Shown in pieces: positions 590 through 8,900 of a DNA stretch of 28,622 bases (positions are counted from its first letter, which is position 1; each line of letters begins with the position of its first letter). Made by a program: the position numbers and the translations under genes. The notes under the pieces are model-generated. The model had not been told where the DNA came from. It was given only the letters and a program-made list of their open reading frames with translations, and did not search any database. The stretch is from NCBI GenBank assembly GCA_034002465.1, contig JAVFAO010000040.1, forward strand, positions 1 to 28,622. Direction: 5' to 3'. Source of the stretch: Myxococcota bacterium (GTDB lineage Bacteria > Myxococcota_A > Bradymonadia > UBA4248 > JAVFAO01).

Positions 590-668
590 AAGTTGTTGCG
601 CGCCATCCATGGCGCGCACCCTTCGGGCTTGCTTCGCAGCGAGTCTCCGCCTCCTGGCTTCGACTTCT
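590..668. repeat. Partial copy of the composite REP-like element: B-tail (aagttgttgcg), a 20-nt hairpin (gcgcgccatccatggcgcgc, 598-617) and the A' segment (acccttcgggcttgcttcgcagcgagtctccgcctcctggcttcgacttct)
   Basis: Aligns with 4203-4281. The hairpin copies differ by paired substitutions. Confidence 0.85.
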
Positions 669-702
669 CATTGTAGAGCCGCACCAAGGGGATGTTTCCA
701 CA

Positions 703-802
703 CGCCCCAACCAGGGCATCGTGGATGACCATGGGGTGTGGTTCGCCGTCGTTGCAAAGGGGCGAATCATCATTCGCCCCAGCCAGGGCATCGTGGATGA
801 CC
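703..802. repeat. 28-bp direct repeat (cgccccaRccagggcatcgtggatgacc) at 703-730 and 775-802, with a 9-bp-stem hairpin (ggggcgaat-catc-attcgcccc, 759-780) between them
   Basis: Read directly. It lies about 180-280 bp upstream of the ATPase start. Confidence 0.8.
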
Positions 803-912
803 CCCGATTGGAGACGCATGTGGCTGTCAATGCGAGGCAGAATGGGGGTACGAGGCGAATCCAGTCCTCGCCGTTGATCGAGCCCGTCAAGACCTGGCAG
901 CCTCGCCACACC

Positions 913-940
913 TTGATCGGAAAGCGCGAAGTGCTAGGCT
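913..940 (+). promoter_or_regulatory. Candidate sigma70-like promoter TTGATC-N16-TAGGCT upstream of the ATPase gene
   Basis: Hexamer spacing read in the sequence. An RBS (AAGGAGA, 974-980) and a GTG at 985 follow. Confidence 0.3.
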
Positions 941-984
941 TGCTTGGCCTCGGCGGTCGAGAGCCGTGGGCGCAAGGAGACCCT

Positions 985-2247
985 GTGCTCATTCAGTTTC
1001 GCTTCGAGAACCATCGCTCGCTTCGGGACGAACAGACGCTCTCGTTCGTGGCAAGTTCCGAGTCTGAAGAAGACGAGCCTCGTCTGCTCCACCATCCCAG
1101 CCTCGCCGAGTCACTGCTGCCGACCGTTGCCATCTACGGCGCCAACGCCTCTGGCAAGAGCAATGTCATCGACGCCTTGGCGTTCATGCGCGCGGCAGTG
1201 CTCGACTCCCATCGACTGTGGGAGCCCAAAGGTATCCGAAACGACCCATTTCGTCTGGGGCAGCGCGAAAAGGAGCCTTCGCTGTACGAACTCCAGTTCG
1301 TTTCTGCAGACCGCCGCTATCGATATGGTTTTTCGCTGGACGCGGAACGCGTTTCCAGCGAGTGGCTCGAGCGCTGGAGCGGCACCAGTTTCGAAAGCCT
1401 GTATTCGCGAGACGGTGATCGTTTCGAACTCCACGCAGACTTTTCGAACGATACTGAGCTGCTGACTCGCCTCACGCGTCCCAACAGCCTCTTCCTTTCG
1501 GCTGCAGCGCAGAACAATCATCCTGCGCTTGGCGAGCTGTTTCAGCACTTCGAGGGTATTCGGGTCATCGCGCCATCGGCCTTTGACGCGACGCACTCGC
1601 TCGCGCGAGCGACCCGCTCCGTCGAGGCACTCTTCGCTTCTCCGCGACAGCAATCACTCTTCCCTGACGAGAGAGGTCTCGTACAACAACGCGAGGCGGT
1701 GCTCGAGCTGCTTCGCGTCGCCGATCTGGGCATCCTCGACATTGGCCGGGATGAGTCACGTCGCTCTCGCTCCGCGCCCTCCCTTCTGTTCAGGCATCGA
1801 GCCAGCCCTCCCGAGCGAGAAGCGTGGCTTCCACTCGAGGGTCAATCGCGTGGCACCCTGAAGCTGCTCGAGCTCGCTTTGCCGTTGCTGCTCAGTCTCC
1901 AAAGCGGCACCTCGCTCTGGGTCGACGAGTTGGACGCCAGTCTGCATCCCGTCTTGGCTTCGCACTTGCTTTGTCTGTTCCACACGCCTGAGACCAACCC
2001 GCTCGGCGCTCAGTTGGTCTTCACCACCCACGACACCCACCTGCTCGGCACTTTGTTGGGCCAACCGCCGCTACGCCGGGATCAGGTCTGGTTCACCGAG
2101 AAGAGCGAGGATGGCGCCACGACACTCTTTCCTCTCTCGGACTTCGAGAGCTCCGAGCATCAAAACGTGGAAAGGGGCTACGTGCAGGGACGCTACGGAG
2201 CCATTCCGTTCCTGGACGAGCTCCGACTGACCAAGGGTTCTGAATGA
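985..2247 (+). CDS. AAA_21 / ABC-like ATPase of an AbiL-like or OLD-like two-gene module
   Basis: Walker A reads AIYGANASGKSNVIDAL. The Walker B/D-loop reads LWVDELDASLHP and the H-loop reads VFTTHDTHLL. The N-terminus LIQFRFENHRSL is typical for this family. GTG 985 was chosen because AGGAG lies 5 nt upstream. The 586-984 extension in the track ORF is repeat DNA. The stop overlaps the next start as ATGA. Confidence 0.85.
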   Translation: MLIQFRFENHRSLRDEQTLSFVASSESEEDEPRLLHHPSLAESLLPTVAIYGANASGKSNVIDALAFMRAAVLDSHRLWEPKGIRNDPFRLGQREKEPSLYELQFVSADRRYRYGFSLDAERVSSEWLERWSGTSFESLYSRDGDRFELHADFSNDTELLTRLTRPNSLFLSAAAQNNHPALGELFQHFEGIRVIAPSAFDATHSLARATRSVEALFASPRQQSLFPDERGLVQQREAVLELLRVADLGILDIGRDESRRSRSAPSLLFRHRASPPEREAWLPLEGQSRGTLKLLELALPLLLSLQSGTSLWVDELDASLHPVLASHLLCLFHTPETNPLGAQLVFTTHDTHLLGTLLGQPPLRRDQVWFTEKSEDGATTLFPLSDFESSEHQNVERGYVQGRYGAIPFLDELRLTKGSE

Positions 2248-2864
2248 GTGCAGCCAGAAAGCGGGATGATTCGGTTCGTCGCTCTCCGGGCAGAAAGCAG
2301 CCCAAGCGTCGAATCCTTATCGTCTGCGAGGGGCGGCTGACAGAACCGCACTACTTTCGACGGTTTCAGCACGCGACCCGGAATCCGTTGGTGCACGTCG
2401 AGGTGGCCAAGGAGACCGGAGTACCGCTGACGGTCGTTCAGATTGCTGTCCAGCATAAGGAGAAAGCCGAGCAACAGGCCCGACGCCAACACGACGATTT
2501 CCTTCGTTGGGACGAGGTCTGGGCGGTCTTCGACATTGACGAGCATCCTCATGTTTTCGAAGCCCTTCGCTTGGCGGAGCGCGAAGCGATTCACACTGCC
2601 GTCTCTGACCCGTGTTTCGAGCTCTGGGCATTGCTACATTTCGAGGATCAGCGCGCACATATCGAGAGAAAGCAGCTACGCCTCAGGCTCAAGCGCCACA
2701 TGCCCGACTACGACAAGGAGCTCGACTTCGACAGGATGCACCCCCATTACGACAACGCGGTGGCCAGGGCCACGCACCTGAACGAAGAGCTCTCCACTCG
2801 AGGCCGAAACCCTTCGACTCAGGTGTTTCTGCTTACCGAGTCCATCGCTCGCAACGGCCACTGA
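2244..2864 (+). CDS. RloB-family (Toprim-like) protein, partner of the ATPase
   Basis: The N-terminus has ILIVCEGRLTEPHYF (RloB consensus ilIvcEGekTEpnYf). A DxD-like VWAVFDIDEH motif is present. The C-terminus has SDPCFELWALLHFE (consensus sNPcFElWlLLHf). Its start overlaps the ATPase stop by 4 bp. Confidence 0.85.
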   Translation: MSAARKRDDSVRRSPGRKQPKRRILIVCEGRLTEPHYFRRFQHATRNPLVHVEVAKETGVPLTVVQIAVQHKEKAEQQARRQHDDFLRWDEVWAVFDIDEHPHVFEALRLAEREAIHTAVSDPCFELWALLHFEDQRAHIERKQLRLRLKRHMPDYDKELDFDRMHPHYDNAVARATHLNEELSTRGRNPSTQVFLLTESIARNGH

Positions 2865-2925
2865 AACCCGCGTGCAGCGTCAGCATTGAGCCCTCTCTGC
2901 TGCCCCACCCATTGGAATGCAGAGG

Positions 2926-2976
2926 GCTTGCCCCGCCAAGCGGGGAGAGGCAAGCGCGCGCGGTCAGCGCGCGAGC
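2926..2976 (+). terminator. Two GC-rich stem-loops (gcttg-ccccgc-caa-gcgggg-..-caagc, and cgcgcgc-ggtca-gcgcgcg) downstream of the RloB gene
   Basis: Inverted repeats read directly. There is no U-tract, which is usual in high-GC genomes. Confidence 0.4.
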
Positions 2977-3110
2977 GCCTGGGGTCTGAGAGCGCAAGCA
3001 TCCTGCCGGTTTGACACCTAGATGGCGTTCCTCGTCGTGGACACCGCTGGCCAGCGGATGCCCCCCTCGCCCCTCGCCCCTCGTTTCTCGTTCCCATTGC
3101 TGCGCTTTCC

Positions 3111-3130
3111 GGCCACGGCATGCCGTGGCC
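3111..3130. promoter_or_regulatory. Perfect 20-bp palindrome ggccacggca|tgccgtggcc upstream of kptA (candidate operator)
   Basis: Read directly. It sits about 150 bp upstream of the predicted kptA start. Confidence 0.3.
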
Positions 3131-3277
3131 CTCGATGGGGATCTCAATCGCACCCATCCTCGCCCCTCGCTCCTCCTCCTGTCACAAAGCTGTCGCGGAG
3201 ACGTCGCCTGCGGCATTCTTCCCGCGCGACGCCACCGGAGAGCGCGCCCGCTGGAACGACCCAAGCAGAGACTGAAG

Positions 3278-3841
3278 ATGCGACCTCGACAAGAGCAGAT
3301 ACGGACGAGCAAGTTTTTGAGCATGGTGCTGCGCCATCGACCCGAAAGGATTGGCATCGAGCTCGATGCAGCCGGCTGGGTGAGCATCGACACCCTGCTC
3401 GCGCAGCTCGCCAAGCACCGACACCCCCTCTCGCGAGAGGAGCTCGAGGCCATCGTCAACAGCGATGAGAAGGGGCGCTACGCCATCTCTTCGGATGGAC
3501 GTCGACTTCGCGCCAACCAAGGCCATTCGGTGCCGGTCGACTTGGGCTTGCAGCCTGCGACGCCGCCAGACACGCTCTATCATGGAACCGTCGAGCGCTT
3601 CCTGCCTGCGATTCTCGAGCAGGGCCTGTTGCCCATGCAGCGCCATCACGTCCACCTCTCGGCCGAGCTCGAGACAGCGGTTCGGGTGGGGGCGCGGCGC
3701 GGGACGGCAATCGTAGTTCGCGTCGACGCCGCAGCAATGCGTCGAGACGGTCATCCCTTCTTTGTCAGTGAGAACGGCGTCTGGCTCTGCGAGGCCGTCG
3801 CGCCTGCTTATCTCTCACGCTGCTCGGCTTCGAGCGGCTAG
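3278..3841 (+). CDS. kptA: RNA 2'-phosphotransferase KptA/Tpt1 (ADP-ribosyltransferase fold)
   Basis: SKFLSMVLRHRPERIGIELDAAGWV...YAISSDGRRLRANQGHS...LYHGT...HHVHLS...ENGVWL aligns along its length with E. coli KptA. The start was trimmed to Met90 of the track ORF, because the upstream part is Pro/Ser-rich low complexity. Confidence 0.88.
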   Translation: MRPRQEQIRTSKFLSMVLRHRPERIGIELDAAGWVSIDTLLAQLAKHRHPLSREELEAIVNSDEKGRYAISSDGRRLRANQGHSVPVDLGLQPATPPDTLYHGTVERFLPAILEQGLLPMQRHHVHLSAELETAVRVGARRGTAIVVRVDAAAMRRDGHPFFVSENGVWLCEAVAPAYLSRCSASSG

Positions 3842-4053
3842 GCCTCTTCCTCGAGGTCGAACTCGACGGCTTCGTTGCGATGTCCAGGACGAGGAATACG
3901 CTTCACGGCCTTCTTAGCGACCTCGACGATCTGCTCACGGGTCTCGCGGCCGCTCTTGGGGGTGACCAAGATCGCGACGCTCGCGCCGACGAGTGCGCCG
4001 CCGAGAGCGGCGAGGATGAGGTGTCCGGCTCCGTAGGTGTTGTGATGGCTCAT
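3838..4053 (-). CDS. YtxH-domain protein (general-stress-like, PF12732-like)
   Basis: GAGHLILAALGGALVGASVAILVTPKSGRETREQ is the YtxH signature. The start was trimmed to an ATG with AGGAGG 5 nt upstream. Confidence 0.7.
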   Translation of the reverse strand: MSHHNTYGAGHLILAALGGALVGASVAILVTPKSGRETREQIVEVAKKAVKRIPRPGHRNEAVEFDLEEEA

Positions 4054-4169
4054 GAGGTCCTCCTGCAATGGCGACAATCCCGTCGCCGGGGGTGGCTGTG
4101 TCGTTGTTTTTGTGGGGCTCTGCCCCACTCCCCGCCAAAGGGCAGTGCCCTTTGGAATCCCTCCGAAAT

Positions 4170-4320
4170 TTCTTGTTGATTGGGCGCTTGGCCTGTTCTC
4201 CCAAGTTGTTGCGTGCCTTCCGTGGCACGCACCCTTCGGGCTGCCTTCGCAGCGAGTCTCCGCCTCCTGGCTGCGACTTCTTGTTGATTGGGCGCTTGTC
4301 CTGATTCCACAACTTCTCTG
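4170..4320. repeat. Composite REP/MITE-like element: B repeat (4170-4212), hairpin gcgtgccttccgtggcacgc (4211-4230), A' segment (4231-4281) and a second B repeat (4278-4320)
   Basis: It has the same architecture as 590-668, plus B copies at 46-82 and 28366-28420. It is intergenic. Confidence 0.88.
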
Positions 4321-4331
4321 TTCGGAGCTTC

Positions 4332-4751
4332 TCAGGTCTCCTCGTTCTCGTCGTTCGTGCTCGCGTCTTCGTCGGCCTCTTCAGTCTCCTCTGCGGCGGC
4401 CTCGCTGTTGCGGCTGGCCATGAAGGCGCTGACCGCAGGACCGACGACGGCAGCGACCGAGGAGGCGATGCCGATGAGTGACATGTTACGCTCGACCCGC
4501 TCGGCCAGTTTGCTGGTGGTGTCGAGGATTTGGGCGAGCTTGGCTTCGCTGCCCTCGAGGCCGCGGCTGAGCAGCTCCGCCCGTTCTGCGACGAGCTGAA
4601 GCTGCTTGACCGTGGGCTGCATCTGCTCGGTGAACTGGGCGATGCGCTTGTAGGTCCTGAACAGGGTCAAGAAGATCATGACCATGATGGGGATCAGCGC
4701 ACCGAGTAGCATCGAGAAGAGGATGAGGAGGGTGACTTGCCAGCTTTCCAT
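4332..4751 (-). CDS. DUF948-family membrane/coiled-coil protein (commonly paired with YtxH)
   Basis: MESWQVTLLILFSMLLGALIPIMVMIFLTLFRTYKRIAQFTEQMQPTVKQLQ gives an N-terminal TM helix followed by a coiled coil, typical of DUF948. The start was trimmed to Met49, with GGCGGAG upstream. Confidence 0.65.
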   Translation of the reverse strand: MESWQVTLLILFSMLLGALIPIMVMIFLTLFRTYKRIAQFTEQMQPTVKQLQLVAERAELLSRGLEGSEAKLAQILDTTSKLAERVERNMSLIGIASSVAAVVGPAVSAFMASRNSEAAAEETEEADEDASTNDENEET

Positions 4752-5364: not shown

Positions 5365-5407
5365 GCTCGGCGTTCGGCTTGTTCGGCTTGGAGAGGGGAC
5401 CGAAGAG

Positions 5408-5488
5408 GACGCGGAGAGGACACAGAGAGCGCAGGACGCGGAGAGGACACAGAGAGCGCAGGACGCGGAGAGGACACAGAGAGCGCAG
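5408..5488. repeat. Perfect tandem repeat, 27-bp unit gacgcggagaggacacagagagcgcag x3
   Basis: Read directly. It lies 130-210 bp upstream of the minus-strand operon start. Confidence 0.9.
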
Positions 5489-5900: not shown

Positions 5901-8900
5901 ATGCTGACAGGGACGAGCTCGGACGCCGAAGCATCTGCTGCCAAGGGGCCTCTGGTCATCGTGGGAATCGGCGCCTCTGCTGGCGGCTTGGAGGCGATTC
6001 AGGCCTTCTTCCAGGCCGTTCCGGTCGACAGTGAGCTGGCCTACGTGGTCATTCAGCACCTCTCCCCGGACCACAAGAGCCTGATGGTCGAGCTGCTCAG
6101 CCGCAAGACCCTGATCCCAGTGCAGCGGGCCGAGAACGGCATGGAGGTGCTGCCCAATCACGTCTACCTCATCCCGCCCAAGATGAACCTGTCGATCTTC
6201 CACGGGAAGCTGCTCCTCGAGGAGCAGAACCGCGACGGCATCAGTCTCCCTGTCGACGTCTTCTTTCGCTCCCTCGCCGAGGATCAAGGCGAGCGCGCCG
6301 TCGCCGTGGTGCTCTCGGGTACCGGCAGCGATGGTGCACGCGGGGTGAGGGCCGTCAAGGAGTGGGGGGGCATGGTCTTGGTGCAGGACGAGCACAGCGC
6401 CAAGTTCGATGGCATGCCTCGTGCCGCAGCCTCCACGGGCGTTGCCGACTTCATCTTGCCGCCCGAAGAGATGCCCCAGCAGATCTTGGCCTGCTTGCGT
6501 CATCCCTATGCCGTGTCACAACGGCGCGGCGAGGCGCCCAGTGACGAGACCGGCATGACGCGGCTCTTCTCACTGCTCAGGGCGCGCACCAAGGTCGACT
6601 TCACCTACTACAAGCCGAGCACCATCAACCGCCGCATCGAGCGCCGCATCGCCGTCTGCCAAGCCGCCGACCTCGACGCCTATGTGCGCTTCGTCGAGCA
6701 GCATCCCAGCGAGCTCTCTTCGCTCTATCGCGAGCTGCTGATCGGGGTCACCAGCTTCTTTCGCGATCCCGAGGTGTGGACGCTGCTTCGTGAGCAGGTG
6801 CTGCCCGAGCTCTTCGCGCGCTGCGAAGACCGCTCGCTTCGCTTCTGGGTCGCTGGCGCCTCATCTGGTGAGGAGGCCTACAGCCTCGCGATTCTCTCTC
6901 GAGAGGTGATGGAGCGTATGGGTTTGGTCAAGGATCTCAAGATCTTTGCCACCGACATCGACCGCGAGGCCGTGGCCAAGGCCGGCGCCGGGGTGTATTC
7001 GGCGAGCATCGTCGCCGATCTCGACCACGCGCTGCTTTCCAAGTACTTCATCAGCCGCGGAGAGACCTTCCAGATTGCGCGCCCCATTCGCGAGATGGTG
7101 GTCTTCGCGCAGCATAACCTGCTCAAGGATCCGCCATTTACGCGCATCGAATTGGTCAGTTGTCGCAACTTGCTGATCTATCTTCAGACCAATCTGCAGC
7201 AGCACGCCCTCGACATGTTCTCCTTCTCGCTCAACCCACAGGGCATTTTGCTACTGGGCAACAGCGAGACGGTGGGAGAGCGAGAGGACCGCTTCGAGGC
7301 AGTGCACCGCAAGGCGCGCATTTACCGCTCGCTGAGCAAGAGCCGCATGCTCACCGTCGAGAGCAACACCAACGCCCTGCTGCGCGGCTCCAGTCATTCC
7401 AACGCTCTGCCTCAGGTGCGTGGGTCCCGGTCCTTGCTGCGTGAGCAGGAGCGTCTCCTCACCCGTATTCTCGATGCAATCTCCAGAACCTACTTGCCGC
7501 TGGCCGTGGTGGTGGATGAGCACCTCGAGATCGTGCACAGCGTGGGCGACAGCAGCGGGCTGATGAGTCTTCCCAGCGGTCGCGCAGTCTACGACATCTC
7601 CAAGATGGTCAGTAAGGAGCTCTCCATTCCGCTCGCCACGGGACTGCAGAAGGTGATGCGCACTGGGGAGGAAATCGTCTACACCAACGTGAGGGTCAGA
7701 GACGACGCCGATGGACGCACTCTGCGGCTGCGGCTGCGCCCGCTCCCAGGACGCAAGACCGAGCCGGTGCTGGCCGTCGTGCTCTTCGAGCAGGTCGAGC
7801 AGAGCTCCGAAAGTGGTCTACTCAGCAATCAGGGCTTCGACCTCGAGATCGAGACCTCCCAGCGCCTCCAGGATCTCGAGCAGGAGTTGCAGTTTACCCG
7901 CGAGAACCTGCAGGCCACCATCGAGGAGCTCGAGACCTCCAACGAAGAGCTGCAGGCCACCAACGAGGAGCTGCTCGCCAGCAACGAAGAGCTGCAGAGC
8001 ACCAACGAGGAGCTGCAGAGCACCAACGAAGAGCTGCACACCGTCAACGCCGAGTACCAGAACAAGATCATCGAGCTCACCGAGGCCAACAACGACGTCG
8101 AAAACCTCCTCTCGAGCTCGCGCATCGGCACCATCATCCTCGACGAAGACCTCTGCATCCGACGCTTCTCTCCGCAAGCTGCGGCAGCCTTCCATTTGGT
8201 CGACAGTGATCTCGGCAGGCCCCTCAAACACATCAGCCACACCTTGCTCGATTTCGATCCCTTGGCCCAGTGCCTTGCGGTGCAACGCAGCGGACGCCCT
8301 GTCGAGGACGACGTCAGCACCGAAGATGGCCGCTTGTTCCTCCTGCGCATCATTCCTTACCTGGTGGCGCCTCGCACCTTTTCAGGGGTGGTGCTCACGC
8401 TCATCGATATCACCCCGCTGCGCGACGTCAGCGCGCGGCTCATGCGCAGCCAGCAGACCGAGGCCGACATCGTCAAGCACATGCCCGCAGGTCTCTTTGT
8501 CTACCTCGTCGACAGTGGCGGAGAGCTGCGCCTGCATGCCGGCAACCCCTATGCCGAGCAGCTCACCGGTCGTCACCTCGAGACCATGCAGGGGATGCGC
8601 TTCCTCGACCTGTGGCCTGGACAGGGCGGTCGAGAGCTGCATCGACGACTGGTGGAGGTACACAGAGCGCAGAGCGTCTTCGAGCATCCTCATTTTGAAT
8701 ACTCGGACCAGCACTTTTCAGGGCTCTTTCGGGTCTCTGCCTTCCCTCTGCCTGCTTCGAGGGTTGGCGTCGCTTTCGAGGACGTGGGCAGCAGAGTGCG
8801 GGCCGAGGCGGAGCTGCGGCGCATCGAGTGGCTGCTCTCTGGCTCGACGCAGGAGCCGTCGGGCTTGGCGCACGCGCGCGGCCAGCTCTCAGACAGTGAG

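Follow-up and report, generated by a model that had tools for sequence, protein, structure and literature searches.

Escherichia coli carries bacterial interspersed mosaic elements (BIMEs), in which palindromic units and conserved non-palindromic linkers are joined into mosaics of variable number. The palindromic elements of Rickettsia are said to be a case of repeat insertion within genes (Ogata et al., 2000). The small dispersed repeats of cyanobacteria (Elhai et al., 2008), which are tens of nucleotides long, reportedly form clean insertions, also in mobile elements. Bentley et al. (2007, PMC1797815) described neisserial intergenic mosaic elements (NIMEs), that is, arrays of dRS3 and RS units in which a short conserved unit alternates with repeat families of about 50-150 nt; dRS3 is a 20-bp inverted repeat, ATTCCC N8 GGGAAT. 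Di Nocera et al. (2013, PMC3733652) defined the GTAG class of repetitive extragenic palindromes (REPs) by an unpaired GTAG adjoining a stem of 6-13 bp, and the head-to-tail arrangement of REPs is called rare in that paper. Both PMC3116915 and PMC3337134 refer to BIMEs. For Myxococcota, the searchable literature yielded no account of short interspersed repeats.

Here we describe a family of short repeats in a contig of an uncultured Myxococcota bacterium (JAVFAO010000040.1, assembly GCA_034002465.1) and compare it with these systems. The window, i.e., the whole stretch of DNA that was analysed, comprises 28,622 nt. An earlier note on this DNA had proposed a multi-copy family resembling REPs or miniature inverted-repeat transposable elements (MITEs), and the proposal is borne out by modules dispersed across contigs and samples. 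With a probability of about 0.8, these are short interspersed mosaic repeats of an uncultured Myxococcota bacterium, forming a lineage-specific family that is built from three modules and whose arrays are passengers at this locus. The family is multi-copy, dispersed, modular, insertional and strain-variable. Its modules are B, a unit of 36 nt without strong structure; hairpin+A', a unit of about 70 nt with three stem-loops; and C, a GTAG REP of about 44 nt. Arrays of variable length are built from B in alternation with C or hairpin+A', or from B in tandem with itself.

Module B spans about 44 nt including the core TTGGGCGCTTGGCCYGTTC, and four copies are present in the window, all on the plus strand, in agreement with the number reported previously. 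The 19-nt core of B accordingly has four matches in the window vs. a chance expectation of 0.01. The first copy (40-83) lies between two copies of C, where C and B together form a unit with a repeat period of 82 nt. The second (4170-4213) opens the right-hand composite element, and the third (4278-4321) is degenerate, with 68% to the reference. The fourth (28373-28416) is a solo copy upstream of a minus-strand vault-protein homologue. The statement that B is always intergenic is true of the window and fails elsewhere in the genome, where copies sit inside genes. In its tandem or inserted form, B has a repeating unit of 36 nt. In an alignment of eight copies, TTCTTGTYGATTGGGCGCTTGG is common to all, and the sequences diverge after it. 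B is always entered via a common (A)CTTCTTG junction, be it from C, from A' or from another B, and on its 3' side it is followed by GTTGCG and then by C or the hairpin. B alone turned out to be unstructured (folding z of 0.4 and -1.3), its inverted repeat being limited to 5 bp, TTGGG/CCCAA.

The hairpin+A' module is contained in an 84-nt direct repeat, composed of B tail, hairpin, A' and B head, at positions 590-673 and 4203-4286. The two copies lie 3613 nt apart and are 89% identical. On the left, the partial unit (590-673, plus strand) is made up of a B tail (590-600), the hairpin (597-618), A' (619-664) and a B head (665-673). The right-hand element has the order B, hairpin, A', B, just as had been described; its hairpin (4210-4231, plus strand) has the stem TGCGTGCC/GGCACGCA, and its A' (4231-4277, plus strand) adds two further small stem-loops. 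The 43-nt A' core occurs twice in the window vs. 0 expected. The hairpins of the two copies, 20-22 nt long, read GCGCGCCATCCATGGCGCGC and GCGTGCCTTCCGTGGCACGC. At position 4/17, one copy has C-G and the other T-A, and further differences at positions 8 and 12 open the top of the second stem. The predicted stem appears in both the minimum-free-energy and the centroid structures, on either strand and in both copies. The whole unit folds into three small stem-loops with z of about -2.6 to -3, and the stem test gave 86.7% paired cells vs. 13-57% in slid controls. This hairpin, the one named in the earlier note, carries no GTAG or CGTC tag and is flanked by GTTGTT and ACCC. Adenine-specific mutagenesis of the type caused by diversity-generating retroelements was considered for the 84-nt copies and rejected, since their nine differences are of mixed type.

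The third module, C, had been overlooked. It forms a strong hairpin at 1-46 and again at 83-128, flanking the first B; both copies lie on the minus strand, head-to-tail. Read on that strand, C is CAAGAA-GTAG-GGGCGGAC-CTGCGT-GTCCGCCC-TTCTTG. It is the strongest hairpin among the modules (z of -3.9 to -4.5). Both C, with stems of 8 + 6 bp, and the hairpin of the second module, with a stem of 8-10 bp, have the palindrome or stem-loop expected of a REP, and an unpaired GTAG/CGTC tag at one end is seen in C alone. Judged by its sequence, C conforms to the published description of GTAG-tagged REPs. Its two copies, 82 nt apart, are directly repeated and do not make the inverted REP pair of a REPIN (a REP doublet forming a hairpin). 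Beyond the common ACTTCTTG end, the homology between C and hairpin+A' is not significant, as the score is reached in 103 and 750 shuffles out of 2000. The contig begins at the exact first base of C, consistent with an assembly break inside a repeat cluster.

Copies of the modules were found well outside the window. A query of the six reading frames of the composite element, concatenated as protein, identified three proteins (P0001, P0002 and P0003), all from the metagenome-assembled genome to which the window belongs (MAG; MDX97..., RBU37_ tags) and all on other contigs. P0001 starts with hairpin-A'-B. P0002 is pyrroline-5-carboxylate reductase (ProC), the annotated C-terminus of which reads through B-B-B-A'-hairpin with a tandem B period of 12 aa, that is, 36 nt. 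In P0003, which is a radical-SAM protein of the B12-binding type, a partial A'-hairpin-B lies internally; the corresponding DNA is at L011 1430-1530, whereas P0001 and P0002 are read here as peptides. The deposited proteins of the MAG hold translated modules as an N-terminal extension (P0001), as a C-terminal one (ProC, P0002) and as an internal stretch of 32 aa (P0003). A metagenome scan revealed one further full-length B, in contig Ga0116164_10030153 (L007). The modules were seen combined as C-B-C, B-hairpin-A'-B, hairpin-A'-B-B-B, B-B and solo B, and the copy number is at least about a dozen units at at least 8 loci (the window, three other MAG contigs and other samples). The repeats are not unique to this locus, as the earlier note had allowed they might be, given that at least three more contigs of the MAG, and further metagenomes, contain modules. 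In genome-collection contigs, at least six occurrences of the 19-nt B core were seen among the matches listed, in unrelated taxa and with no extension past the core, and they are regarded as chance matches. Viral contigs gave no match to B, A' or C, and a plasmid blastn search with the composite element and with C-B-C gave none either.

Assembly graphs are informative as well. Logan unitigs are built with k = 31. Unitig L017 stops at window position 4269, and the next 31-mer (4268-4298, A' tail and B head) excludes the locus-specific base 4299. Such an end is expected of a de Bruijn graph at a sequence that is present in several contexts. The break of another unitig, L008, at window position 4139 was not counted as evidence; it looks to be due to a strain single-nucleotide polymorphism and not to a repeat.

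Comparison of filled with empty homologous sites, in three cases, shows that the modules are insertions. The B of L007 reaches into a ParB-like open reading frame at its 5' end, and this frame is followed by an IS21-family IstA transposase (264 bits vs. a cut-off of 160). At the DNA level, L007 differs from the closest homologous locus, L012, by a single clean 36-nt gap, and the closest ParB-like homologue (77% identity) has MNGGSAMQ where L007 has MNENLGEQAKRPIDKKSAMQ. Among the best 120 of 506 proteins (E <= 1e-5), the B-encoded peptide is present in the L007 protein alone. The clean gap and the absence of the peptide in the homologues indicate that B entered the ParB-like gene and was not derived from it. 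No clear target-site duplication is seen at the L007/L012 junction, where the protein-level identity of the two loci is only about 77%. In an alignment with eight homologues, P0003 shows an in-frame insertion of about 32 aa, EDTLRRHPEGCVPGMAYNNLGEQAKRPIDENL, in a loop of the B12-binding domain.

A further filled site is the right-hand array of the window. It lies between a ytxH-like gene (3838-4053, minus strand) and a gene for a DUF948-like membrane protein (RBU37_05505; 4332-4751, minus strand; the Pfam match is weak and under the curated cut-off), which are the downstream and upstream members, respectively, of an operon split by the array. The distance between them is 278 nt in the window vs. 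3 nt in the relative, i.e., in GCA_964454015.1 and three other assemblies, which are the nearest available at 56% identity. None of the modules is found in 20 kb of GCA_964454015.1. The array also differs between close strains. An ENA contig (L009) that is 98% identical to the window over ytxH has one extra tandem 36-nt B at the ytxH locus. The same strain is devoid of window positions 3181-3836 (kptA), with 28 unrelated nt instead, and keeps ytxH and the array; the ends of the kptA indel are away from the repeats. Modules reside in spacers and occasionally in-frame within genes, and the number of units differs between close strains.

As to the mechanism, the modules are inferred to be non-autonomous selfish or neutral DNA. 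Those that bear hairpins are probably copied as single-stranded DNA by a trans-acting transposase of the HUH/RAYT type (RAYT, REP-associated tyrosine transposase). That the enzyme is specifically a RAYT-type HUH transposase is possible and somewhat doubtful; the GTAG tag of C is the sole feature that points to it. The tandem B units and the common junction suggest that arrays grow and shrink, probably through recombination or slippage, both from one B unit to another and at the common CTTCTTG junctions. One array has widened the DUF948-like/ytxH junction from 3 nt to 278 nt, and another sits in the spacer of 1 kb, rich in repeats, that precedes the AbiL genes.

Several points weigh against this picture. 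The window contains no transposase and, in particular, no RAYT (Y1/HUH) gene, and neither a target-site duplication nor terminal inverted repeats are visible. The C copies are in direct orientation, unlike the inverted pairs of REPINs. Since B lacks a hairpin, it is not obvious that an enzyme recognising hairpins could mobilise B by itself. The difference in B number between L009 and the window fits gain and loss alike. The copy number is a lower bound, short of whole-genome coverage.

A bolder reading goes further. B would be an independently mobile 36-nt unit, free of hairpin and terminal inverted repeats, and B arrays would act as NIME-like recombination anchors that speed the turnover of AbiL and kptA genes between strains. 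We consider this unlikely. If it were true, no transposable unit so far characterised in bacteria would be as small and simple as mobile B.

Another explanation is that the modules are functional RNA elements kept for their structure, such as mRNA stabilisers, processing sites or attenuators in operons. The stem-loops are stable, and many REPs are transcribed according to published work. At 5/6 loci of known gene orientation, the sense strand carries B as its reverse complement, namely at the ytxG-like/ytxH spacer, the spacer upstream of the vault gene, the 3' end of proC, the radical-SAM gene and the ParB-like gene. In addition, one stem pair is compensated. The change from C-G to T-A at position 4/17 is indeed present as claimed in the earlier note, where it was taken as evidence of selection on the structure; that interpretation is not supported, since it relies on one compensated pair in three DNA copies and 320/500 shuffles reach the score. 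In the third copy, L011, pair 4/17 is broken (C·A). The P0001 peptide VACHPWHAP implies T4-A17 together with A8-T13, matching the right-hand copy, and T4-A17 in P0001 and in the right-hand copy probably goes back to a single past event. The hairpin is a genuine palindrome; selection on its structure is not demonstrated, and maintenance at the DNA level, e.g., recognition of a single-stranded hairpin, would look alike.

Other observations also speak against a function in RNA. No Rfam family was matched even at E up to 1, where sub-threshold noise only was obtained. The hairpins are not followed by a T-run, and terminator-like sites are not enriched (6 vs. 4.5 expected), and a terminator function was rejected. 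The make-up of the modules changes from locus to locus, copies lie in-frame within coding sequences, and B alone does not fold. The RNA explanation therefore seems improbable. A replication-strand bias was looked for too, and the GC skew, at about 0, proved uninformative.

It had further been claimed that the repeats bracket a block of 3.6 kb and mobilised it. According to this explanation, the 84-nt direct repeats are boundaries, att-like or of a composite element recombining, of a mobilised AbiL/RloB/kptA/ytxH island. Between the repeats lie an AbiLi-like AAA_21 ATPase gene (985-2247, plus strand; PADLOC AbiLi 1.2e-94), its AbiLii/RloB-like partner (2244-2864, plus strand) and kptA/Tpt1, which encodes an RNA 2'-phosphotransferase (3278-3841, plus strand; 262 bits vs. 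a cut-off of 239). The first two are context genes outside the repeat family. The distance and identity of the direct repeats, the presence of a defence pair of the AbiL type with a strain-variable kptA between them and the slightly lower G+C across the AbiL genes would all suit an island. However, the repeats belong to a dispersed family that is multi-copy elsewhere. Across hairpin+A', the right-hand copy differs by 1 aa from the P0001 copy and by 4 aa from the left-hand copy; being nearer to P0001, it does not form with the left-hand copy a pair from one event. The right-hand element is inside the conserved DUF948-like/ytxH pair, one gene of which is outside the supposed block, so ytxH is a resident and was not imported. 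No integrase, transposase or tRNA is found in or beside the block, and the sole indel observed takes kptA alone and ends off the repeats. An island of this kind is quite improbable. With the weaker claim, that of a hotspot of variation, the kptA indel, the variable B number and the AbiL-type pair are compatible; mobilisation is not supported. The locus is variable gene by gene, consistent with a defence neighbourhood, and the arrays are passengers here that did not carry the AbiL and kptA genes.

The overlap of B in L007 with the 5' end of the ParB-like frame preceding IstA might be read to mean that B is left over from the end, or from the first gene, of an insertion sequence (IS) of the IS21 family, whose MITE-like derivatives would be the arrays. 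This is a very remote prospect. The clean 36-nt gap in the closest homologous locus and the peptide-free homologues (best 120 of 506 inspected) led to rejection of the idea that B is conserved in the ParB-like/IS21 gene. A second B-like copy is missing from L007, there are no terminal inverted repeats (the composite element ends in direct B copies), and the only IS found beside a B, that of L007, acquired it by insertion.

Some further features of these loci deserve mention. In both L007 (1-1987, minus strand) and L012, an IS21-family transposase gene has a ParB-like gene before it. The ParB-like protein has >500 homologues, nearly all on short contigs and spread over many taxa, so an IS21 variant with an extra ParB-like gene may be widespread. 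In the window, kptA adjoins the AbiL defence pair, and its presence or absence according to strain suggests that it behaves as an accessory gene, possibly one associated with defence. No credible gene lies in positions 1-984, which are densely filled with repeats, and the entire window is free of tRNA, integrase, transposase and Rfam matches. Upstream of the AbiL genes there is a 26-nt direct repeat (705-730 and 777-802). A perfect 20-nt palindrome, GGCCACGGCATGCCGTGGCC, at 3111-3130 is kept in the variant strain, and three more hairpins occur at 4054-4169, between ytxH and the first B there. On the minus strand at 25129-28284, with the solo B upstream of it, is a gene for a protein of 1051 aa that is homologous to the major vault protein (MVP) of eukaryotes, unusual in bacteria, with an MVP shoulder domain (1.5e-16) and a vault repeat domain. 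Unrelated intergenic tandem arrays lie at 164-336 (42 nt x4), 5406-5488 (27 nt x3, perfect copies) and 24822-24986 (22 nt x7.5); the last opens with a palindrome and is located between the gene of a TPR/C39 protein and the vault-protein gene. A 21-nt periodic coding repeat at 7861-8070, in a CheB-CheR-PAS fusion gene, encodes a heptad-like NEEL(Q)xT coiled-coil and is likewise unrelated to the repeat family.

The lineage-specific repeat family accounts for a number of peculiarities. It explains MAG contig breaks in the lineage, the present contig starting inside a C-B-C cluster. It also explains spurious or inserted peptides in the annotated proteins P0001, P0002 and P0003, as well as a 278-nt spacer in an operon whose two genes normally lie close together. 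The 36-nt insertions, which are clean and in one case within an IS, offer a tractable case for the spread of very small repeats. No new way of moving defence genes is revealed.

When set beside the GTAG REPs and REPINs with their RAYTs (PMC3733652; Bertels and Rainey, 2011, PMC3116915), the family shows a clear likeness in C, a small palindrome with an 8-bp G+C-rich stem, an outer 6-bp stem and an unpaired GTAG at one end. As with REPs, the units are clustered, mostly between co-directional genes and sometimes intragenic. In contrast to REPs and REPINs, the most frequent module here, B, is not palindromic, the C pair is head-to-tail, the hairpin of the second module is untagged, and the window lacks a RAYT gene. 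The Rickettsia palindromic elements have a counterpart in the in-frame insertion in a surface loop of an intact protein (P0003) and in the insertion at the 5' end of a gene (L007); however, the copies described here lie mainly outside genes, and their elements are shorter and built of modules. Like the cyanobacterial small dispersed repeats, the modules make very small clean insertions, including into other mobile elements, although the phylum and the sequence are other ones and only a handful of B insertions are documented.

The closest resemblance in architecture is to BIMEs and NIMEs, as module combinations vary and the L009 array has its additional B. With the E. coli BIMEs, the family has in common mosaic arrays of palindromic and non-palindromic units, variable in number and placed in operon spacers; the sequences are unrelated, and BIME units alternate in orientation whereas the modules here keep one orientation. 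With the Neisseria NIMEs, it has in common a short unit that alternates with repeat families, syntenic arrays that vary by strain, and variable genes that adjoin them. Unlike dRS3, B is not an inverted repeat and is unrelated to it in sequence, and no link to a site-specific recombinase or a phage was found. By this analogy in design, the family is a counterpart of BIMEs and NIMEs and not a member of either. In general, it is a lineage-specific newcomer to a well-known kind of genomic feature.

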